Below are positions 1 through 41,998 of a DNA stretch of 43,114 nt, one piece after another. The stretch is taken from the NCBI GenBank assembly GCA_964449955.1, contig CAYVBS010000004.1:1-43114 (forward strand), read 5' to 3'. This DNA comes from an uncultured Candidatus Saccharibacteria bacterium (lineage in GTDB: Bacteria > Patescibacteriota > Dojkabacteria > SC72). The position numbers and the translations under genes are program-made. The notes beneath the pieces are model-generated. The model saw only the letters and a program-made list of their open reading frames with translations. It ran no database searches and was not told where the DNA came from. Numbering within the stretch: position 1 is the stretch's first letter; each line of letters begins with the position of its first letter.

Positions 1-3000
1 GGAAGTATCTGGATAGATACCAATATATTGAATGGTAGCGATACAATGCTAATCTCAGCCAAAGGAGAAAAGGGTAATCTTAAAGCTACAGGTTCAGCAG
101 GAGGGGGAAGGATAGCACTTTACTACAACAGCAGTAATATAGATATTCCAACCTATGTATTGAACGGAAAAATAAATACATATGGTTCTAGTATTTCCAG
201 TGCTGAAAGTGGAGGGACAAGAGTATCTGGATCTGGAACTGTGTATATTGAAGATAGGGAGGTGTACGAAGAACATAAAGGTGATCTATATATAGATAAT
301 AATGGTCTTTCTTCACAGATTACTGATTTTGAGGCTAAAGAGTACCTCTTTAATAATTTATATATAGGACCAAACCTGTATGCAAAGGTAAAAGGTAATG
401 CAGAAAATAATTCAGGAACAGTTTTAAACTTAACTGGAGATTTTACTTTAGAAAGCGGTTCTGTAATAGATGGCGTAGGTGAGGGTTTCAGCGCAGCGGA
501 TGGTCCTGGTGCAGGAAACACGGGTACTATTCTTACTGGAGGTGGTGGAGGTGGCCATGGTGGTAGTGGAGGAAACGGCGTTTCGGGAGATGGTAATTTA
601 GCAGGAGGAGGAGTGTTCTATGGAAGTCAGCGTCAACCTCTCACTTTGGGCTCTGGAGGAGGCAATTCAGAATCTGGTGCTGTAGGTGGAAATGGGGGAG
701 GGGCATTTGCTGTATTGGCAAAGCAAGGACAAGTTAATATCTTAGGAGAAATAAATGTAAGTGGTACAGATGGAGCTCCCGCTGAAAGTGGAGGAGGAGG
801 AGGTGGTGGTGCAGGAGGCAGTCTATTTGTATATGCAAATAGCTGCAATATCTCTGGCACACTCTATGCCAATGGAGGAGATGGTGGTAGTGGCGATTTC
901 TCTGGAGGAGGGGGAGGTGGTGGTAGAGTCTCAATCCTTTACATCCAGGGACCATGTGATTTTGCTGGTGCAGTATCGGTACAATCAGGTTCAAGTGAAG
1001 GAGGGCAAGAAGGACAGGTCGGTACATTCCCATCTGAACCTAACTCTGTTCCATTCCCAACAGATTTCCAGAATCAATATGAGATAAAAGGAAGTATGGG
1101 AAGTGGCGATGCTCATGTATTAGGAGTTAATACTTCGGAAGAGTTATTAGGTACTGGAGATGCAGGTGAAGTTGTAGAAGTCCCCATTCCTTTAGGTGGT
1201 ACTGTACAGGGTAATACTATTACATTCAGATCAAGTGTCTTTGATGCTGGGGCATCTTCGCTTACACCCAAGACTCTAAAGATAGAAGTAGAACTTAAGA
1301 AAGTAGGAGAAGACTTTGATGGTACTACAAATATACACTCATCGGACTCAATACTCTTTAGTGGAGGTGATCCAGTAGTACTTGCTGTAAAGGTTGAGGA
1401 TTTAGAACTAGGGACTTCATATAAGTGGAGAGTAAGAGCTGTTAATGTGAATAATCTTCTAGCTAGTGATTGGAGAGATTTCGGTAATAACGGAGATGAA
1501 GCAGATTTTACAATTTCTCAAATCAAGGCATTAACTTTAGAATCAAGCAAAACAGAAGTTGAACTAGGAGAGAAGTTTGATTTGAGAGTAAGTATATATG
1601 ATATGTTTGACAGTATAACTGATCAGTACAGTGGAACCGTACAGTTTACTACCAATACAGATGATGGATATCTAACACCTTCTTCTATTACTTTCGAAGC
1701 AGATATCTCTGCCATAATGGACATTTCTCAGGCAGCATATTTTACTAAACCTGGAACCTATCTAATTATTGCCTACGATGATGAGAATAACCTACTGTAT
1801 GACAGTATAGAGATAACTGTTCTACCTGCTAAGGTACCAACTCTCGAGTTACTTGCAGACAGAGAAAACATAGTAGCCGGCGAAACTGTTACTTTAGCAT
1901 GGGTAAGTGAACATGTAACCAGTTTAGTTCTTTCATATGACGGTGAAGAAATAAATGTAAATGATAAAAGCTCTATCGATGTAAAGCCTACTAGAACTAC
2001 AACATATACCCTAAGTGGAACAGGTGCGAATGGTGAGGATATGAGTTCTTCTGTGGAAATTACTGTACTACCAAGCTCTGACGGGTCTGACTCCGAACTA
2101 GAGTCGGAGAATGAGCCTAAAAACCCAGAGAATGTGGAACAAGGAGGAGAACCAGTAGACGAAGGCGATAACATTCCTCCAATTATAGAAATCCCTAGAG
2201 TAGCTGTCAGTAGTTTTCTTGATAGGATACAGAACAAAGAGGTTGTATCTGCGGTTAGTGTTGCATCCTTAGCTATTGTATATACAACCTACAGTATGTT
2301 AACAACACCTGTATATTTCAAGCAATTACTTACTTTTCTTCTTCCGTTTGTTAGGGTCAGGAAGAAGAAACGTGGCTATATATTAATATATGACTCTATT
2401 ACTCGTGAACCAATAAATGGAGCTGTTGTCAGAGTAATTAACTCAGAGAACAAGTTAATTGAAACAGGGGTTTCAGATATCTTTGGAACTTTAGATCTAC
2501 CATTGAGAGAGGGAAGCTACAAACTAAAGATAATGGCGAGAGGATATTCATACCCAAGTACGATTATCACTGATAAATATGATTCTCCGTTAGAAAACAT
2601 ATATCACGGAGAAGAATTTACTGCTAAAGATGGTAAACCAATTGAATTTTCTATTCCACTTGATCCAGAAAACAATCCGACAGCAAAGTCTCTGTTAAGA
2701 ACTATTGGTAGCAAGCTCTCTATACTGTTACGGACCATTATTTATATCTTAATTGTTGTATCATTCGTACTTTTAATAGCCTCACTCACAGAGGGTATTA
2801 CAGCTATTAAAATTGTTACACTATGTGCATATATTATATTTGTGATACTGAATATTATTGCAATTATCAAAGGAAACAAGTTATACGGTGTTGTAAGAGA
2901 TTCGCAAGGAAATGCTTTAGAAGGAGTTGAGATAGGGATAAGAGATTTAGAATTTGAGCAACTAACTGCAAAGAGAGTTACCGATAAAGAGGGTAGGTAC

Positions 3001-3144
3001 AGATTTGTAATACCTTCTGGGAGATATAAAATAGAAATACTCAATCAAGACTTGGAGCTAGGGTCCGGTCAGCAGACTATGTTCCAAGAGAAAGAGGGTA
3101 GAATTATGATCATAAATCCTACTCTTACAGTAAAGAGAAGGTAA
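1..3144 (+). CDS. Giant cell-surface protein, 5'-truncated by the window edge. Contains a Gly-rich beta-helix-like region, FN3/Ig-like domains, an acidic linker, and a C-terminal TM plus two CarboxypepD_reg-like domains.
   Basis: Frame is open from nt 1 (GSIWIDTNI precedes the TTG at 28). Poly-Gly turns (GGGGGGHGGSGGNG, ESGGGGGGGAGG). FN3-like YKWRVRAVN. Linker SSDGSDSELESENEP. Hydrophobic segments near aa 740-760 and 900-950. Last ~300 aa are paralogous to 39899..41998. Confidence 0.75.
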   Translation, partial: GSIWIDTNILNGSDTMLISAKGEKGNLKATGSAGGGRIALYYNSSNIDIPTYVLNGKINTYGSSISSAESGGTRVSGSGTVYIEDREVYEEHKGDLYIDNNGLSSQITDFEAKEYLFNNLYIGPNLYAKVKGNAENNSGTVLNLTGDFTLESGSVIDGVGEGFSAADGPGAGNTGTILTGGGGGGHGGSGGNGVSGDGNLAGGGVFYGSQRQPLTLGSGGGNSESGAVGGNGGGAFAVLAKQGQVNILGEINVSGTDGAPAESGGGGGGGAGGSLFVYANSCNISGTLYANGGDGGSGDFSGGGGGGGRVSILYIQGPCDFAGAVSVQSGSSEGGQEGQVGTFPSEPNSVPFPTDFQNQYEIKGSMGSGDAHVLGVNTSEELLGTGDAGEVVEVPIPLGGTVQGNTITFRSSVFDAGASSLTPKTLKIEVELKKVGEDFDGTTNIHSSDSILFSGGDPVVLAVKVEDLELGTSYKWRVRAVNVNNLLASDWRDFGNNGDEADFTISQIKALTLESSKTEVELGEKFDLRVSIYDMFDSITDQYSGTVQFTTNTDDGYLTPSSITFEADISAIMDISQAAYFTKPGTYLIIAYDDENNLLYDSIEITVLPAKVPTLELLADRENIVAGETVTLAWVSEHVTSLVLSYDGEEINVNDKSSIDVKPTRTTTYTLSGTGANGEDMSSSVEITVLPSSDGSDSELESENEPKNPENVEQGGEPVDEGDNIPPIIEIPRVAVSSFLDRIQNKEVVSAVSVASLAIVYTTYSMLTTPVYFKQLLTFLLPFVRVRKKKRGYILIYDSITREPINGAVVRVINSENKLIETGVSDIFGTLDLPLREGSYKLKIMARGYSYPSTIITDKYDSPLENIYHGEEFTAKDGKPIEFSIPLDPENNPTAKSLLRTIGSKLSILLRTIIYILIVVSFVLLIASLTEGITAIKIVTLCAYIIFVILNIIAIIKGNKLYGVVRDSQGNALEGVEIGIRDLEFEQLTAKRVTDKEGRYRFVIPSGRYKIEILNQDLELGSGQQTMFQEKEGRIMIINPTLTVKRR

Positions 3145-3146
3145 TG

Positions 3147-3641
3147 TTAATCCTCTTCACTTTCCAAAGTACTTACATACTGAGATAGTATTGAGGGCAT
3201 AATATCATTTAGCTTCTTAGCAGCATCCTCTTCCTCTCTTAATATTGTTGCTATCATTGTCTCTATATCATGCTCATTGAACATTCTACATGCTTCTAGT
3301 ATGACCATATATGTAGCCATCTCAAAATGCTCTGTAGTATGCTCTGCTACCCAGTTCTTAACTATTTGATCATGTGCTAACTCTCCAACCTCTGCTTCAA
3401 GAAAGCCCATTGCTTTACCCAGTCCCTCTTTAACAGAGGGTATATCCTCATCGTGAGCAACTAATATATCATGTAGTCTTTCTGCTTGATTAGCTGTTAG
3501 CTCTTTGTGCTCTCTTATGAGATCTTGATACTCTGGATACTCCTCGGCATCTTTCTCATGTCTTTCCAATACAGTCTCTATCTGTTTTTCCATTACATAT
3601 GCATTCTGTATCCATTTAAAGAATTGTTCTCTGTTTGTCAT
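3147..3641 (-). CDS. Ferritin-like DUF892 (YciE/YciF family) protein
   Basis: AYVMEKQ, EHFEMATY and REEEDAAKKL segments match the YciF-type four-helix-bundle pattern (L..Y.aEKQ, EHYEIASY, EEEKATD). ATG at 3641. Confidence 0.65.
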   Translation of the reverse strand: MTNREQFFKWIQNAYVMEKQIETVLERHEKDAEEYPEYQDLIREHKELTANQAERLHDILVAHDEDIPSVKEGLGKAMGFLEAEVGELAHDQIVKNWVAEHTTEHFEMATYMVILEACRMFNEHDIETMIATILREEEDAAKKLNDIMPSILSQYVSTLESEED

Positions 3642-3803
3642 AGGCTTAAAAATAAAAAATTAAATATATTTAATTTTGTTGTTTTATGAAATTGCGAGTA
3701 GAAGTAGTTTCTGCTCGAGTAGTTTAGTTTGAATATCTAACTATATTAAATTGTACCATGTTTTGAGATATTCTGTTTGTAATTTCAAAGTTATCCACAA
3801 TCC

Positions 3804-4982
3804 ATGGTATCATTGTATATGAGTAGATACGATACACTGATTGAAAACTTGGTAAGTCAGGAAGTAGATATCAACTCTACAGATGAGTATCTAATCACGA
3901 TATACATACCTTTCAACTTTACAAATATTGAAGAAAGTAAGATCAAAGCTAAATCAGCATTGCTTGAGAAATTAAGAAATTACAAAGAGTTAAGTAAGCA
4001 GGGAAGATTCCATGAAGCTTTAGTAGATACCGTAAACTACTACATGAATCAAATACCAGTAGAGAGTAAAGGTGTAGCATTTTTCATAAGGGGGAAGGTT
4101 AGTGATGTACTGGGAGGTAAGGAAAGGAATATACCACAGAGCAATATCACAATATTACCCATATATATAGAGTTTGAATCTGATGTATATATTGGGAAGG
4201 TGTTTAACTTAGATCAGCTTGTATGGAGTAATAGGTGGGATAAAAGTGTATTGGTTGTTACTCTTGAGGTAAACAATACCCTTATCTATGTATATCGGAA
4301 TGATAGGCTAAAACAGGTGTATAAAATGGTTAAGAGCGAATGGGATTTTACTAAGCCTAAGCATTTTGCAAAGACAAATATCACAGGTTACTTTAGTGCT
4401 GTATATGGAAGCGGAAAGGACAAGTTTGAGAGGTTTGATAGGCAGACAGTGGATCTGTTTGTAGATAATGTGCTGGAGAACATAGATGAAGAACTTAGGA
4501 ATGGTATAGATGATGTGATCATATATTACAGTAATGAATTCTCCCCCTTTGTAGATGATATAGAGGAGTATATTTGGAGAAGATTTAATATTAAAGCTAA
4601 ACTAATACACAAAAATCTTAGAGAAAAGGATATTGTAGTAAGAGATGTCTTGGAGGTACTAAAGAGTGAAAGAAAAAGTGTAAAGAGTAGTCTACTTGAG
4701 AAAGCAAAAGCATCAAGTATTCTCTATGTTGAGGGGTGGGAAGATGTAACTGACATGTCTAGAGAGGGTAGAATAGGGACACTGTTTGTACGTCATAAGC
4801 TTAGTCAGGAAGGATATGTGTTGAATGGCTTGGTATATACCGGTAAGGTTGGAGATAGTGAAAGAATTGATAACATATATCCATGGTTAGTAAGAAGTAT
4901 TGTATCTGCAAGCGGAGAGCTGGTCTTGTTCTATGAGGATGACGAGGAGAATGTTGAGGTATCTGCTTTGTTAAGATACTAG
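3804..4982 (+). CDS. eRF1/Pelota-like protein (bacterial archaeo-eukaryotic release factor-like, baeRF) with a degenerate GGQ loop. The start may instead be ATG 3819.
   Basis: VYGSGKDKFERFDRQ aligns to the eRF1 loop GRGGQSALRFARLR (SGK replaces GGQ). The C-terminus ends ...VSALLRY, like eRF1/Pelota GIAAILRY/F. A beta-strand run SVLVVTLEVNNTLIYVY precedes the loop. Confidence 0.5.
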   Translation: MVSLYMSRYDTLIENLVSQEVDINSTDEYLITIYIPFNFTNIEESKIKAKSALLEKLRNYKELSKQGRFHEALVDTVNYYMNQIPVESKGVAFFIRGKVSDVLGGKERNIPQSNITILPIYIEFESDVYIGKVFNLDQLVWSNRWDKSVLVVTLEVNNTLIYVYRNDRLKQVYKMVKSEWDFTKPKHFAKTNITGYFSAVYGSGKDKFERFDRQTVDLFVDNVLENIDEELRNGIDDVIIYYSNEFSPFVDDIEEYIWRRFNIKAKLIHKNLREKDIVVRDVLEVLKSERKSVKSSLLEKAKASSILYVEGWEDVTDMSREGRIGTLFVRHKLSQEGYVLNGLVYTGKVGDSERIDNIYPWLVRSIVSASGELVLFYEDDEENVEVSALLRY

Positions 4983-5074: not shown

Positions 5075-5260
5075 ATGAAAGACACATATCTAAACAAGTT
5101 TTTTGCATATACAGTAACTATTTTAATCATTGTAAGTATCATTGCTATTATCTATGTCGCATGGAAGTTTGGTAAAGATGTGAGCAATGTAAATGGTGTA
5201 ACCGATACCAATATGTCTATATTAGAAGGTGAATCCGTTGCGAGTGAGTATGTTAAGTAA
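5075..5260 (+). CDS. Small single-pass membrane protein (hypothetical)
   Basis: 61-aa ORF with one clear hydrophobic helix (YTVTILIIVSIIAIIYVAW). No recognisable family. Confidence 0.4.
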   Translation: MKDTYLNKFFAYTVTILIIVSIIAIIYVAWKFGKDVSNVNGVTDTNMSILEGESVASEYVK

Positions 5261-5424: not shown

Positions 5425-5823
5425 ATGACAAAGAAGGAAAGATTGCTAGTTATAGCTATCATCATCTCAGTATTTGGGTTTTCAATTTTCGGTACCATTA
5501 ATCCTGTTGAAGCAAGGACCGATAGAGGTGCTGTAGTATATGAAGTTGGTAGGCATGAGAGAAGCCGAGTCAGAGCTCATGCGAATGACCTAGATGTGGA
5601 GACTAGATGCTACAGAGAGCATAGGGATTCATTTAAGCATACTAAGATGGTAGATATGCTTAGTACTGTTTTAGATATGTCTCCCGAGGATATAGAGGAT
5701 GCCCTAAGCAATGGAGCAAGACCTAAGGATATGCTTGCAGATGCGGGTATAGCAATGCATGATTTGATGGAGGAGTTCAACTTTGAGTTAGTAGGAGAGA
5801 GAGAGTTTGTAAAGTTTAGATAA
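5425..5823 (+). CDS. Small exported or membrane-anchored protein (hypothetical)
   Basis: N-terminal hydrophobic segment LLVIAIIISVFGFSIFGTINPVEA followed by a charged soluble part. No recognised domain. Confidence 0.5.
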   Translation: MTKKERLLVIAIIISVFGFSIFGTINPVEARTDRGAVVYEVGRHERSRVRAHANDLDVETRCYREHRDSFKHTKMVDMLSTVLDMSPEDIEDALSNGARPKDMLADAGIAMHDLMEEFNFELVGEREFVKFR

Positions 5824-6330: not shown

Positions 6331-6915
6331 ATGGGAGTACATAAAGAAAAAATTCTTTGTATAGAGTCTGAGAAACTTTTTAAATATGGAAAGTGGAATG
6401 GACTTAAGACTGAGGATTTAAACAAATACAAAAAATTAATATCCACCCAAGGAGAGTTTAAAGTAAGAGATGAGCTTGAGAGTGATTCTACATATAAACA
6501 GGTAATTGCTCAGGTAGTACTTAAGTACAAGGATAAATATTTCTTACATAAACAGGTAAACCGAACGGAAGAGAGACTAAACAGCCTATGTCCACTCCCA
6601 TTAGGTGGACATATTGAAGAGTTTGATGAAGGTGATGATATAGTGGAAACAGCTCTGTTAAGAGAGCTTGATGAAGAGGCTGAGGTAAATGCTAATATCC
6701 TTAAGAAGGATTTCTTAGGTTTAGTGTATATAGAGGATGAGAATGAGGTGAATAGGGTGCATGTAGGAATGGTATATGTCTTTGAATTAGATAGTGATGA
6801 TGTGCATATTAAGGAGGATGGTCTAGAGGATGTTGGCTTTGTAAGTTTAGATTACTTAAAAACTAACAAGGAAAAACTTACATTTTGGAGTAGGATAATA
6901 ATTTATCATCTCTAA
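6331..6915 (+). CDS. NUDIX hydrolase family protein
   Basis: Nudix box GGHIEEFDEGDDIVETALLRELDEEAEV (Gx5Ex7REUxEExGU). GAGGGG SD-like motif upstream. Confidence 0.75.
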   Translation: MGVHKEKILCIESEKLFKYGKWNGLKTEDLNKYKKLISTQGEFKVRDELESDSTYKQVIAQVVLKYKDKYFLHKQVNRTEERLNSLCPLPLGGHIEEFDEGDDIVETALLRELDEEAEVNANILKKDFLGLVYIEDENEVNRVHVGMVYVFELDSDDVHIKEDGLEDVGFVSLDYLKTNKEKLTFWSRIIIYHL

Positions 6916-9026: not shown

Positions 9027-9093
9027 CCCCGAGCTATCAAGAATGTAATTGTATTAGGAAAAAGTAAGAGACCCGGGTATCTTATATATTCTT
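9021..9093. repeat. Copy A of a ~73-bp intergenic cassette; copy B is at 39829-39901
   Basis: Ungapped alignment to 39829-39901 gives 47/73 identities by hand count. GTAACCCCG and ACCCGGGTAT anchors have identical 48-nt spacing. Confidence 0.55.
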
Positions 9094-9459
9094 GAATAAC
9101 CTTGATAATTTTTTGTCTAAAGTTATTAACTGAGAATTGTTTATCTTTGCTAGGAAGAGGATTATAGAATCTGTAGCTGTAAAGGAATGTTTAAGATTCG
9201 CTGTGAAATCGATGTAATCTAGAATATTCTCATCGGTCAGTGAAGGTATTTCTTCTGCCATTTCCATACTTATCTTTATACTAAAGTCTCTGAATTTCTT
9301 ATCTGCAGAAAAGCTCATAAGCTCAGCAAATACAACAGATGGAATCAAGAGGTATGAATGCTTTAGATCTTGAGCTATCCTTCGTGCTTCTCTGTGGTTT
9401 GCATTGTCCTCATTTAAAAAAGCACTGATAAAGCTTGTGTCAAGGGTATAGCTTTTCAC
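9082..9459 (-). CDS. vapC: PIN-domain toxin (VapC family)
   Basis: Acidic residues in PIN positions (LDTSF, FAEL, TATDS, ITLDKK). 4-nt overlap with the upstream antitoxin ORF. Confidence 0.75.
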   Translation of the reverse strand: MKSYTLDTSFISAFLNEDNANHREARRIAQDLKHSYLLIPSVVFAELMSFSADKKFRDFSIKISMEMAEEIPSLTDENILDYIDFTANLKHSFTATDSIILFLAKINNSQLITLDKKLSRLFKNI

Positions 9460-9734
9460 TTTTGTTCTCTTTGTTTTCTAATATACTTTGTAGCATTTGT
9501 ATATTTTTTAGAAGATATGGAATATTTGCCAAACCTTTCTAGAAAACTTTTATCAGTTTCTTTGTAAGGGGTTTCCTGTTTTGCATCAGTGTAATCTTTT
9601 ATGCTGGTTAGTACAGCAATAGGGTCTTTCATCTTTTTGTAGCCAAGATATACTATCCCTCCATCCTTTACAAAGGAAAGTGCTTTAGAGGGATTTTTAT
9701 AAAACTCGGTTGTAGTATATATTTTTTTCTTCAT
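9456..9734 (-). CDS. Antitoxin of the VapBC pair (Phd/YefM-like N-terminus)
   Basis: 92-aa ORF overlapping vapC by 4 nt. TTTEFYKNPSKALSFV...PIAVLTSIKDY resembles the Phd/YefM fold signature. Operator palindrome lies immediately upstream. Confidence 0.6.
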   Translation of the reverse strand: MKKKIYTTTEFYKNPSKALSFVKDGGIVYLGYKKMKDPIAVLTSIKDYTDAKQETPYKETDKSFLERFGKYSISSKKYTNATKYIRKQREQK

Positions 9735-9824: not shown

Positions 9825-10934
9825 TTACTTTTTCTTACTCTTTCTAGCTTCAGACATTACATCAGCTTTTGTTCTGACTACTGCTCCTACTGCTAACATC
9901 GTTAGTGCTAAGGAGTAGAGTACTCCTACTACTGGGATTAGTCTTACTAAGACAGATAGTAATCTTCCTATTAAAAGGGATAGGTAAAGTTTCTCATCTT
10001 TCTGGTTGAGTAGATCTAATATCTTATGTCCTACTGCTATCTCTACCCATAGGGTTCCAAATATAGTTAGGAAGAGTAGTGCTCCTAATATTAACAGTGA
10101 GAGTGGTGCTCCTATAAGAGTTGCTGCAAGTAGTATTAATGGTAGGGGAATTGCAAAGAGGATCAGTAATCCAATTGCAAAACTCTTTAATGCATCTGCC
10201 CATGAGCTATTGATATTTCTCTCTATCTGTACAGTCTTAACAGGTGCTAGATATATGAAGAGTGCTCCTACAATATACATTCCCAGAAAACCGATCAGTG
10301 CAAATCCTAGGTCTACTGTTGTAAACCTATCTGCTATTGGCTCCTGTGTCACTGGTCTACTCTCCGTAGTTCTGTTAACTATCTCACCAGCTACATCTCC
10401 ATCTTCAACGGTGTATGTTCGACTTGCAAATACAAAGTCTCCTCCAACGGTTGCAGTGGAAAGTATGTCTCCGGAAACTGCTCTTACATCATCTCCAACG
10501 ACTCCTTCTAGGTTGAGTGTTCCAGTAGAGGTAGTTAGATCCCCACTAATGTCAGCACTAGAGTTTACTGTTAATCCTGCTGCCATGACGTCTCCTCCAA
10601 GGGTTCCATCTAGGTTTAGAGTAGATCCTGCTACTATGGTATTACCATATATATTACCATCAACAACTATACTGTTTGCAGCTACAAACAGGTTTCCTGT
10701 AACAGTTCCATCAATGGTAACTGTTTGTCCTGTTGCTAACACATCACCGTCTACTACTCCACTTATCGTTATATTCGTTCCTGATACATAGAGGTCGTCT
10801 TCTACTACTGATTGGCTTTCTAGTTCATAGTTTCCAAACTCAAAGGTAGCAGCTTGTACTCTACTTGGTAGTATGAAGGCAAAGAGGAGAGCAACTAGGG
10901 GTAGCAAGAAATATATTTTTCTTAGCTTTACCAT
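9825..10934 (-). CDS. Exported bactofilin-like beta-helix repeat protein with a C-terminal multi-TM anchor
   Basis: Signal peptide ending VQA-A. About 8 degenerate repeats of G.V.GD(L/V)..G..V.I.G. Four to five hydrophobic helices in the C-terminal half. KSKKK tail. Confidence 0.55.
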   Translation of the reverse strand: MVKLRKIYFLLPLVALLFAFILPSRVQAATFEFGNYELESQSVVEDDLYVSGTNITISGVVDGDVLATGQTVTIDGTVTGNLFVAANSIVVDGNIYGNTIVAGSTLNLDGTLGGDVMAAGLTVNSSADISGDLTTSTGTLNLEGVVGDDVRAVSGDILSTATVGGDFVFASRTYTVEDGDVAGEIVNRTTESRPVTQEPIADRFTTVDLGFALIGFLGMYIVGALFIYLAPVKTVQIERNINSSWADALKSFAIGLLILFAIPLPLILLAATLIGAPLSLLILGALLFLTIFGTLWVEIAVGHKILDLLNQKDEKLYLSLLIGRLLSVLVRLIPVVGVLYSLALTMLAVGAVVRTKADVMSEARKSKKK

Positions 10935-39898: not shown

Positions 39899-41998
39899 AT
39901 GAAAACTGCCTGTACAAAGTTGTTAGTGGTTTTACTGTTTTTGTTCTTACCTTTTGTTGTTTTGGGTCAGGAAGAGACGCCTGTTGAAGAATATGGTGTG
40001 AATATTGGTGCTGATATTAGGGTAGACCTTTTTTCTACGGTTACACTTAAGCCCGAAAGTGTGGAGATCTTTCAACCTAGTACTGTAGAGATTAGAGTAG
40101 TTAATCCTGATGGAGAGCCACTGTCTAATCGCTCAGTGGTTATAGTTGCTTCTGGTGTGAATATTACTCAACCTTCTAGTCGTACAGATATTACAGGTAA
40201 GAGTACTGGTTTAGTATCTGTGGGTATTCCTGGTGCTTACTCCATATGTGCTAAGGATGTTACGTTTGGATATGACATAGTTATACAGTCTTGTAAGACT
40301 TTGTATGTAGTACCATTAACTACTCCCACTATGCTTCCAGAGCCTGCATATACAAAGGGAACTAGCAATACAGTCATGTGGCAGACATTGGGTTCAGGAT
40401 ACAGGTATACTGTTCAGGCGAGCAGGAATGCTGGGTTTACTGATATTGTAGCTCAAGGTACATGGATTTCGGGTACTTCACATGAGTTTAAGAATCTTTC
40501 AAATGGTCAGATGTATTTCTACCGTGTTAAGGCTAGAAATTTGTATGGAGGGGAGAGTGCTTGGTCTAATTCTGTTTTCTCTGTACAGGATTCACAGAGT
40601 CCTCAAATTGAGATATTAGAGATTGGTGATGTAGGAGAGAACAATACTGTGAAGTGGGAGAATGATTTTGTGGTGAATATGAAATTTAGAGTGACAGACA
40701 ACTTGCAGCTTAAGTCTACAACGTTTAGTTGTATTAGAAAGAGTGGTGGTGCTACGGATTGTTCTGATGGTGGTAGTATGGTAGGTGATATTTTTGAAGT
40801 GAATGTTCGGTTGGATCAGTTAGAGAGGATTTCGGGTGTATATTTGTATGAGTCGTATGGTTTCTGTGTAGAGGCCGATGATATGGCCGGAAATGTTAAC
40901 AGAGTGTGTGATATTGTGTTGAATATTCCCAAGGGTGAGATTGTAATTCCGGGTGAGGAGGAGAAGCCTCCGGTAGTGCCTACTGAGCCAACTGTCATTG
41001 AGAGGATTGAGAAGGGTTTGGATGATTTAGATGTGATATTGGATAATACGGTTGGGAATTTAGATCAGAGTAATTTAGAGACTGTAACTACTACCACTAG
41101 TCTTGTTACTGTTTCTACAGCTATTACTATTGCTGCGGGTACTTTGTGGGAGATTCCATATTTCTTGATGCAGGCTGTGTTGGGTTTGCTCTCTTGGTTG
41201 GGTTTCAGAAAGAAGGGTAAACCTTTAGGTTTTGTATATGATGCAGTAACTAAGGAGCCTGTTTCTCAAGCTATTGTTAGAATTTTTGATGAGAGTAAAA
41301 AGATGGTGTGGTCTGATGTTACTGATTCTAATGGTTACTTTAATGCTCAGTTGAGTGCGGGGAGGTACAGGATCGGGGTGAGGAGTTCGAAGTATTCATT
41401 TCCTTCTAGTATTGTGTTTGGTAAGGAGGATTATCCTTTGTCCAATATTTATCATGGTGAGGAGTTTGATATTTCTGGTGGGGAGGATATTAGGTATGCT
41501 ATTCCGATGGATCCTTTGGAGTTGTCTAAGTTTAGATTGTTTGTTGAGAGTTTCTTTGGTAGGTTTAAGTTTTTGCTTAATTTCTTGCATGTAGTACTGT
41601 TTGTTAGTGGTTTAACAGTTAGTATCTATGCTTATACTTTGTATGGAGGTACTGTTAACTTAATTATTCTTCTCCTCTTTATTCCTTCTTTCTTCCTAAT
41701 GGTTAGAAATATTCTAAGAGGTAGGGGTAGGTACGGTGTAGTTACAGATGTGGAGGGTAAGAGGGTAGAGGGTGTGGTAGTTGGTTTAAGGGAGATTGAG
41801 TTTGACAAGATTGTTGCTAAAAGGGTTACTGATAGGTTGGGGAGGTATAGGTTTGTTGTTGGGAAGGGGGAATATGAGGTAGTGGTATTGGAGACTGGTT
41901 TTAGGGTAGAGAGTGTTAGGGATGGTAGTCTGGTTTCTGTAAAGGGAGAGAGGGAGAGTGTTGTTGCTAGGGATATTACTGTTAGTAAGTTGTCTTAG
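39899..41998 (+). CDS. Cell-surface protein with signal peptide, Ig-like and FN3 domains, and a C-terminal TM/CarboxypepD_reg-like anchor module
   Basis: Signal peptide LLVVLLFLFLPFVVLG. FN3 signature YFYRVKARNLYGGESAWS. PLSNIYHGEEF and AKRVTDRLGRYRFV blocks shared with the protein at 1..3144. Confidence 0.75.
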   Translation: MKTACTKLLVVLLFLFLPFVVLGQEETPVEEYGVNIGADIRVDLFSTVTLKPESVEIFQPSTVEIRVVNPDGEPLSNRSVVIVASGVNITQPSSRTDITGKSTGLVSVGIPGAYSICAKDVTFGYDIVIQSCKTLYVVPLTTPTMLPEPAYTKGTSNTVMWQTLGSGYRYTVQASRNAGFTDIVAQGTWISGTSHEFKNLSNGQMYFYRVKARNLYGGESAWSNSVFSVQDSQSPQIEILEIGDVGENNTVKWENDFVVNMKFRVTDNLQLKSTTFSCIRKSGGATDCSDGGSMVGDIFEVNVRLDQLERISGVYLYESYGFCVEADDMAGNVNRVCDIVLNIPKGEIVIPGEEEKPPVVPTEPTVIERIEKGLDDLDVILDNTVGNLDQSNLETVTTTTSLVTVSTAITIAAGTLWEIPYFLMQAVLGLLSWLGFRKKGKPLGFVYDAVTKEPVSQAIVRIFDESKKMVWSDVTDSNGYFNAQLSAGRYRIGVRSSKYSFPSSIVFGKEDYPLSNIYHGEEFDISGGEDIRYAIPMDPLELSKFRLFVESFFGRFKFLLNFLHVVLFVSGLTVSIYAYTLYGGTVNLIILLLFIPSFFLMVRNILRGRGRYGVVTDVEGKRVEGVVVGLREIEFDKIVAKRVTDRLGRYRFVVGKGEYEVVVLETGFRVESVRDGSLVSVKGERESVVARDITVSKLS

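Follow-up and report, generated by a model that had tools for sequence, protein, structure and literature searches.

Introduction

Bacterial homologs of archaeo-eukaryotic release factor 1 (aeRF1) were cataloged in 2019 by Burroughs and Aravind (PMC6514570), and Balon was characterized in 2024. Balon homologs occur in ~20% of representative bacteria, and three of them are known as hibernation factors from ribosome-bound structures (PMC10901736). Balon has neither the NIKS nor the GGQ motif. It carries an N-terminal His-Pro (HP) motif at the decoding center and a lasso loop and a bL27 trap at the peptidyl-transferase center, and, as reported in the Balon papers, a beta-hairpin of its C domain contacts EF-Tu-GDP. 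Here we examine a gene at positions 3804 to 4982 of a 43,114-nucleotide stretch of DNA from an uncultured Candidatus Saccharibacteria bacterium (contig CAYVBS010000004.1 of GenBank assembly GCA_964449955.1; the whole stretch is hereafter called the window). Its product belongs to the baeRF-1 group, of which it is a highly divergent member, and we consider it probable that it is a non-catalytic A-site binder that would serve as a Balon-type ribosome hibernation factor. An initial annotation of the gene had described bacterial homologs of this kind as rare and functionally uncharacterized, a description that the survey figure and the three ribosome structures cited above have made outdated.

The ribosome-bound references used for comparison were Balon of P. 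urativorans (8RD8, 8RDV, 8RDW), Msmeg1130 of M. smegmatis (8V9J, 8V9L), and Rv2629 of M. tuberculosis (8V9K). Msmeg1130 and Rv2629 inhibit translation in vitro, and the binding of Balon does not depend on mRNA in the A site. The corresponding family models are Pfam PF18845 (baeRF_family3) and NCBIfam NF052287, NF052288, and NF052289.

Sequence relationships

The gene (3804..4982, + strand) is an open reading frame (ORF) of 392 residues beginning with ATG, and no rival ORF of at least 60 residues was found in the other frames over this interval. Its length (387–392 residues, depending on the start codon) falls within the 360–420 residue range given for Balon homologs in the Balon preprint. When the single sequence was searched with phmmer, no PDB chain was matched. 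The sole direct family match, a weak one, was to NCBIfam NF052287 ('AOC03_06830 family ribosome hibernation factor'; 20.4 bits, E 3e-4), in which residues 122–392 align with positions 92–361 of the 361-position profile.

Relatives were recovered in larger numbers by profile methods. A word-indexed protein search with the single sequence returned one relative, at 53% identity, and the same search with a 51-sequence profile added one protein. An exhaustive HMMER search, with a two-sequence profile against 1.84 billion cluster representatives, returned 156 proteins at E ≤1e-3 and 56 at E ≤1e-30, mostly of 380–400 residues and aligned end to end. The resulting family of ~156 cluster representatives comes mostly from metagenome-assembled genomes (MAGs) of Patescibacteria, the candidate phyla radiation (CPR). 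Relatives in species-representative genomes, found with a seven-sequence profile, share at most 28% identity; by label, six are from the Patescibacteria group, Saccharibacteria, or Dojkabacteria, three are from Kosmotogaceae or Mesotoga MAGs, and two are proteobacterial. Two alignments were used below: A2, with 128 near-full-length family members, and A3, with the 51 closest members (20–54% identity to the query). Counts given for the clade refer to A3.

Balon was the best match of the A2 profile among PDB sequences (8rd8_B, Balon in the ribosome structure from P. urativorans; E 4.2e-17, profile positions 25–391 against chain positions 16–369), followed by Msmeg1130 (8v9j_z, 1.1e-6), Pelota (8e-5), and eRF1 (~1e-3). 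To rule out that distant A2 members were driving this match, the search was run with A3 only. Balon was still the top match with this profile (1.7e-4), ahead of Pelota (5.8e-4) and eRF1 (~0.1), and hhalign aligned A3 with Balon over 295 columns (E 9.5e-6). In the sequence-search table, chain B of 8rd8, 8rdv, and 8rdw, which is Balon, carries the name 'Methyl-accepting chemotaxis protein', a label that is misleading when read alone.

Individual members gave the same picture. Of the 51 A3 sequences, the NCBIfam Balon model was matched by 28 (best 8.7e-16), that for MSMEG_1130 by 16, and that for Rv2629 by 7; 68 of the 128 sequences in A2 matched the Balon model (best 4e-86). Among Pfam models, eRF1_3 was touched by 14 A3 members and baeRF_family3 by 9, and the remaining weak matches were one each to families 5, 8, 10, and 12. 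The query itself matches none of the models of the other baeRF-1 families (Pfam baeRF_family2-12, Host_attach), and the weak A3 matches are mainly to family 3 (9/51). The clade shares with those families membership of the same radiation, a poorly conserved catalytic loop, a downstream helix on which a basic residue is conserved, an insert of two strands within the Pelota-type domain, and an association with HPF. Since Balon ranks first with both profiles and is itself a clear baeRF_family3 member (Pfam E 4.5e-30), the query clade is placed by these comparisons within the baeRF-1 radiation, as a very divergent branch that lies next to the Balon family or at its edge.

Pelota is also a detectable homolog, both with the A3 profile (E 5.8e-4) and through one A3 member that matches TIGR00111 pelota at 3.6e-6. 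These matches bear on an alternative that we regard as unlikely, in which the protein would be a Pelota/Dom34-like rescue factor that recognizes stalled ribosomes with an empty A site and splits or recycles the subunits without hydrolyzing peptidyl-tRNA. A Dom34-like, non-catalytic role for baeRF-1 proteins was raised by Burroughs and Aravind (PMC6514570). Like Pelota, which is a non-catalytic superfamily member with homologous middle and C domains and an AALLRF-type end, the query has no GGQ. The structural and genomic evidence described below argues against this role.

Within A3, Tyr34 and Gly337 are invariant, and 13 more positions are at least 90% conserved (L16, G90, F94, Q138, L139, W312, L327, F328, N357, P360, W361, G371, and R391). 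The clade can be recognized by the signatures Y-x-P, F-[DN]-L-D-Q-L-[VI]-W, [H/Y]-G-[T/S]-G-x-[D/N]-K-x-x-[R/K], G-W-x-x-V, N-I-x-P-W-L-V, and A-A-x-L-R-Y. The gene was detected only once within the window.

Predicted structure

An AlphaFold2 model built from the 51-sequence alignment had a mean pLDDT (per-residue confidence) of 88.6 and a pTM (predicted template-modeling score) of 0.85, with pLDDT values below 50 confined to residues 1–3 and 183–203. The model contains an N-terminal domain, an RNase H-like middle domain, and a C-terminal domain of the eRF1_3/Pelota type. In a Foldseek search of the PDB, ranks 1–5 and 7 went to Balon proteins in their ribosome-bound form, namely Msmeg1130, Balon of P. 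urativorans, and Rv2629 (E 3.3e-17 to 7.9e-13, TM score 0.59–0.73, 392–420 alignment columns). Archaeal and eukaryotic release factors (aRF1/eRF1) came next (E 2.5e-14 to ~1e-10, TM 0.25–0.48), followed by Pelota/Dom34 (E 1e-9 to 1e-6, TM 0.2–0.4). The structural search proposed with the initial annotation thus recovered a three-domain eRF1/Pelota-type fold with the quoted motifs in homologous positions, and its claims of an eRF1-type fold and of baeRF-1 membership are borne out by the Foldseek and profile matches.

The N-terminal domain (residues ~1–131; 3804..4196, + strand) is eRF1/Balon-like alpha/beta and contains the conserved Y34-x-P36. Three long helices are predicted at residues 10–21, 42–58, and 67–81, as in eRF1 and Balon. 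Neither NIKS nor NIKL is present in the query sequence; opposite the NIKS of eRF1 the query has RNYK and the clade a variable sequence, in an alignment that is itself not significant. The N domain of Pelota is Sm-like and all-beta. The three-helix N domain of the query is not of this type, and the Pelota/Dom34 fold matches rank below those of both Balon and aRF1/eRF1, which weighs against a Pelota-like rescue factor.

The middle domain (residues ~132–303; 4197..4712, + strand) is the equivalent of the eRF1 M domain and carries the signature F-[DN]-L-D-Q-L-[VI]-W at residues 134–141. In Balon, the Pfam baeRF_family3 model spans this domain. RNase H-like middle domains are widespread, and PilM and Ppx/GppA gave weak fold matches (E ~1e-4, TM 0.2). 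Together with the extreme sequence divergence from characterized relatives, these matches could suggest that the fold has been reused for a non-ribosomal function. We consider this very unlikely, given that all three domains are matched in order over the full length, that conservation extends to the LRY at the C terminus and to the basic residue of the helix following the loop, and that the operon linkage to HPF in relatives points to the ribosome.

The C-terminal domain (residues ~304–392; 4713..4979, + strand) corresponds to domain 3 of eRF1 and to the Pelota-type domain. It contains a beta-strand insert (residues 337–355; 4812..4868, + strand) at the site of the beta-hairpin with which Balon binds EF-Tu and of the eRF1 mini-domain. 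The AlphaFold2 model shows strands at 337–340, 343–345, and 353–355, the first of which begins with the invariant Gly337. In profile alignments the insert pairs with GYIQAAKVDEDAQTLTM of Balon and with the longer insert of eRF1. The protein ends in VSALLRY (4959..4979, + strand), in which Arg391 is nearly invariant. This heptapeptide aligns with ALVTRY in Balon, AAVLRW in Msmeg1130, AALLRF in Pelota, and GGILRY in eRF1, in agreement with its earlier identification as the conserved end of the eRF1/Pelota domain 3.

The GGQ-equivalent loop

The segment YGSGKDKFERFDRQ (residues 201–214; 4404..4445, + strand), which together with the C-terminal VSALLRY had been singled out in the initial annotation and is present as quoted, carries the clade motif [H/Y]-G-[T/S]-G-x-[D/N]-K-x-x-[R/K]. 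When the clade profile was aligned by hhalign with human eRF1 (the sequence used is identical to 1dt9_A), Y201-G-S-G-K-D206 fell opposite H180-G-R-G-G-Q185 and, past a 3-residue gap, K207-F-E-R210 fell opposite R189-F-A-R192; ALLRY was placed opposite GILRY. This alignment to a single eRF1 (3.4% probability, E 0.013) was used for the loop register and not as evidence of homology. It places Gly204-Lys205-Asp206 (4413..4421) at the position of the GGQ (Gly183-Gly184-Gln185 of eRF1). The earlier reading of an SGK in place of the GGQ is therefore right about the loss and not about the triplet, which is GKD in this alignment. An ungapped local alignment by HMMER shifted the register by two, leaving it uncertain by 1–2 residues. 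The loss of the catalytic glutamine is independent of the exact register, because no position of the loop has a conserved glutamine among the 51 A3 members; position 206 is D, N, K, E, or S.

The 14-residue resemblance to the eRF1 loop is by itself not above chance. It is the profile and fold evidence that places YGSGKDKFERFDRQ in the loop homologous to the GGQ loop of eRF1, an equivalence that the initial annotation had proposed and that the hhalign alignment and the column counts uphold. The low-confidence loop (residues 183–203; 4350..4412, + strand) is the counterpart of the eRF1 GGQ loop and of the Balon loop that faces the peptidyl-transferase center, and it is probably flexible, judging from the model. 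Its place is also the one expected for a lasso loop and bL27 trap. It precedes Gly204, from which a 28-residue helix (204–231) runs, an arrangement like that of the GGQ loop and its helix. In the hhalign alignment with Balon, the query AVYGSGKDKFER, a gap of three residues, and FDRQ lie opposite GLYTTGDGGSDRSANNEN.

Two glycines of the loop are retained (Gly202 in 37/51 members and Gly204 in 43/51), and a basic residue at 210 is also conserved. Retained glycines in a flexible loop would be compatible with a protein that is active as a non-canonical release factor or peptidyl-tRNA hydrolase, with a GxGxDK loop instead of GGQ, and the catalytic glutamine is kept in a few baeRF-1 families (PMC6514570). 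The lack of a conserved glutamine at or near the GGQ position, with five different residues at position 206, argues against such an activity, as does the fact that Balon, the closest solved relative, leaves the peptidyl-transferase center inert. We therefore judge an active release factor to be extremely unlikely.

The comparison with classical aRF1/eRF1 can be stated in the same terms. The query shares with these proteins the superfamily, the domain order, the HG-x-G before the GGQ position, an R-F-x-R-like helix pattern, and the C-terminal LRY. It differs from them in having GKD for GGQ, no conserved glutamine, no NIKS, and a much shorter C-domain insert, and in having no eRF3-type partner; its bacterial host presumably terminates translation with RF1/RF2.

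Genomic context of relatives

We compared 15 distinct loci of relatives. In six of them (L004, L006, L007, L012, L013, and L017) the next gene downstream, on the same strand, encodes HPF/RaiA (~100 residues, PF02482 Ribosomal_S30AE); in L015 the HPF/RaiA gene is divergently upstream, giving an adjacency to HPF in 7/15 loci. Relatives thus have the Balon-like gene in apparent operons with HPF/RaiA, and HSP20 is nearby in 3/15 loci. The reported neighbors of Balon genes include RaiA and Hsp20 (PMC10901736), and HPF is a reported neighbor of baeRF-1 families (PMC6514570). Genomes that carry Balon are reported to have RaiA in every case.

The recurrent neighbor is thus a hibernation factor and not a rescue factor. 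Neither the window nor the loci sampled from relatives showed an Hbs1-like GTPase or an ABCE1-like partner. These observations, added to the ranking of Balon as the best match in both sequence and fold and to the eRF1/Balon-like N domain, leave the Pelota-like rescue role favored in the initial annotation less well supported than a role in hibernation.

An OmpR-type response regulator lies within 5 kb of the gene in 8/15 loci (L002, L004, L005, L006, L012, L014, L015, and L017), often accompanied by a histidine kinase; in L015 the regulator is 81 bp upstream on the same strand. The section on genetic neighbors in the Balon paper does not have an OmpR-type regulator among the neighbors (PMC10901736). 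This adjacency may mean that a two-component system controls hibernation in these lineages; chance is conceivable too, because such genes are common.

A further alternative is that the protein is a stress-regulated translation inhibitor or sensor that does not serve ribosome storage, either as a two-component-controlled A-site blocker in conflict or dormancy or as a sensor of nucleotide state acting through EF-Tu. The Balon authors speculate on sensing of GTP, GDP, or ppGpp (guanosine tetraphosphate) through EF-Tu(GDP), which lends this proposal some plausibility. The gene, however, has no match in the PADLOC defense library, no toxin-antitoxin-like partner is consistently adjacent, and response regulators are common genes, their linkage being weak at distances of up to 5 kb. 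We regard this alternative as quite unlikely. Its mechanism overlaps with that of hibernation, with which it is compatible.

A candidate hibernation factor

Taken together, the features shared with Balon are a three-domain eRF1-like layout of similar length, the best profile and fold matches, the absence of GGQ and NIKS, a flexible loop before a long helix of the middle domain, a predicted beta-strand insert within the C domain, an xLR[Y/W] ending, and relatives whose genes adjoin those for HPF/RaiA and HSP20. By analogy with the ribosome-bound Balon structures, we infer that the protein binds ribosomes, contacts EF-Tu, and is induced under stress, with hibernation as its physiological role. 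Under starvation or stress it would enter the 70S ribosome at the A site, with the N domain placed at the decoding center. The flexible loop (183–206) and the basic helix that follows it, with Arg210, would reach toward the peptidyl-transferase center; since the loop is without a catalytic glutamine, the middle domain would not release the peptide. The C domain, through its beta-strand insert, may touch EF-Tu. The predicted outcome is that ribosomes are reversibly silenced and protected, in many relatives probably jointly with the HPF/RaiA encoded just downstream.

Several observations weigh against this assignment. The single sequence has no Pfam match at E <0.1, including eRF1_1-3 and all baeRF models. 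Its 20.4 bits against NF052287 compare with a curated cut-off of 330, the query falls below every curated family threshold, and its identity to Balon is 12–15%. The N domain contains no His-Pro dipeptide, and the HP motif of Balon is not recognizable: the only His-Pro of Balon (REHPAN) falls opposite residues F37-N41 of the query, a shorter loop that varies within the clade, in a weakly aligned region. Finally, no HPF gene was detected adjacent to the gene in L001, the locus of its closest relative, or in the 43-kb window, the latter with a narrow three-sequence profile. Other differences from Balon are the concentration of the clade in Patescibacteria/CPR MAGs, a loop facing the peptidyl-transferase center that is 3 residues shorter (hhalign), a reduced length of the loop that follows the first strand, the clade's own signatures (Y-x-P, DLDQL[IV]W, [HY]G[TS]GxDK, and NIxPWLV), and the pairing of the gene in the window with DUF892 and not with HPF.

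A more specific proposal, which we offer tentatively and consider rather doubtful, is a Balon-like clade centered on Patescibacteria/CPR, with this gene as its founding example, that has rebuilt its ribosome contacts and engages the reduced CPR ribosome in a way unlike Balon, possibly under OmpR-type two-component control, and that is unlinked from HPF in the lineage of the window. A different mode of engagement is suggested by the lack of a recognizable HP motif, the clade's own signatures (Y-x-P, DLDQL[IV]W, HGTGxDK, and NIxPWLV), and the shorter loop facing the peptidyl-transferase center.

The kind of protein described here, baeRF-1/Balon, is already known, and the picture of what such proteins are is unchanged. 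What is new is modest, namely a CPR-centered clade missed by curated models: its members are unnamed or 'hypothetical' in public records and are missed at current Pfam and NCBIfam thresholds. A limited literature search found no link of Balon with Patescibacteria. Ribosome hibernation is not known to have been studied in Patescibacteria/CPR, which are ultrasmall, host-dependent, and probably inactive for long periods. Recognizing the clade should improve annotation and widen the known range of Balon-type factors, and sequences this divergent are useful for asking which features of Balon (HP motif, lasso loop, EF-Tu hairpin) are essential.

Translation start and flanking genes

Most homologs begin at the residue equivalent to Met6 of the query, and so ATG 3819, which would give a protein of 387 residues, may be the true start. 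In the locus of the closest relative (protein P0002, locus L001), the position equivalent to ATG 3804 is a GTG. The sequence TGGTATCATTG[T/A]ATATG spans both candidate starts, with 17/18 nt kept between the window (3790–3822) and L001 (~700–735), despite the two proteins being only 53% identical. This conservation could come from constraint on the encoded residues (MVSLxM) or from an element that acts in translation initiation or as a leader. Another block common to the window and L001, CTAACTATATTAAAT, is located ~70 nt upstream. Both loci thus share conserved blocks of the 162-bp divergent intergenic region (3642..3803) that separates the gene from the DUF892 gene. A scan of the locus returned no promoter-like or terminator-like matches above shuffled expectation.

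The divergent neighbor (3147..3641, − strand) is a DUF892 ferritin-like gene, as had been annotated (Pfam E 1.7e-28). Among the loci compared, DUF892 stands beside the gene only in the window and L001, which are syntenic throughout a block that contains DUF892, the gene itself, a small membrane ORF, a 132-residue secreted protein, ferredoxin, HIT, a hydrolase, and DsbA, with protein identities of 40–58%. Because this block is syntenic throughout, the pairing stems from common ancestry and does not count as independent evidence that the two are linked; we therefore set DUF892 aside as a functional partner.

Downstream, a membrane ORF of 61 residues (5075..5260, + strand) begins 92 nt after the gene and is conserved in L001 (40% identity, E 5e-14). 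No terminator-like site is predicted between the two, and they are possibly co-transcribed, so that the single-gene unit proposed earlier is not established. A PADLOC match of the 61-residue ORF to KwaA (E 0.004) was marginal and was regarded as noise. The 132-residue protein (5425..5823, + strand) has a signal-peptide-like N terminus and is 58% identical to its L001 counterpart. Neither of these two ORFs has a family match, and neither DUF892 nor the 132-residue neighbor matched the PADLOC defense library. A NUDIX hydrolase gene (6331–6915, + strand) lies between ferredoxin and HIT in the window, a position at which L001 has no called gene; two NUDIX genes are found near the Balon-like gene in L004.

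Other features of the window

The window has a G+C content of ~35%, encodes SecA, RecO, many glycosyltransferases, and a PIN toxin, and its sequence recurs in metagenomes from bioreactors, sludge, digesters, landfill, and groundwater. A Patescibacteria/CPR origin is probable. The gene for the PIN-domain protein (125 residues, Pfam E 3e-12) shares 4 nt with the end of a 92-residue ORF that lies upstream and has no family match (9082–9734, − strand). The two resemble a VapBC-type toxin-antitoxin pair and are absent from L001.

Two large, probable surface proteins are encoded near the ends of the window. One (28–3144, + strand) combines long Gly-rich repeats and several hydrophobic segments with a CarboxypepD_reg domain at its C terminus, and it probably extends past the left end; the other (39899–41998, + strand; 699 residues) has CarboxypepD_reg and SdrD_B-like domains. 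Between them, a large cluster for polysaccharide or cell-envelope synthesis (11037–31603) includes UDP-glucose dehydrogenase, an epimerase, a hexapeptide transferase, a flippase, and several GT1/GT2/GT4 glycosyltransferases, as well as ORFs of 447 and 686 residues without a Pfam match, and is followed by an M23 peptidase. A protein of 369 residues (9825–10934, − strand) combines N-terminal bactofilin-like repeats (Pfam E 2.8e-8) with a hydrophobic, membrane-like C-terminal half, and its counterpart in L001 is annotated as DUF8173.

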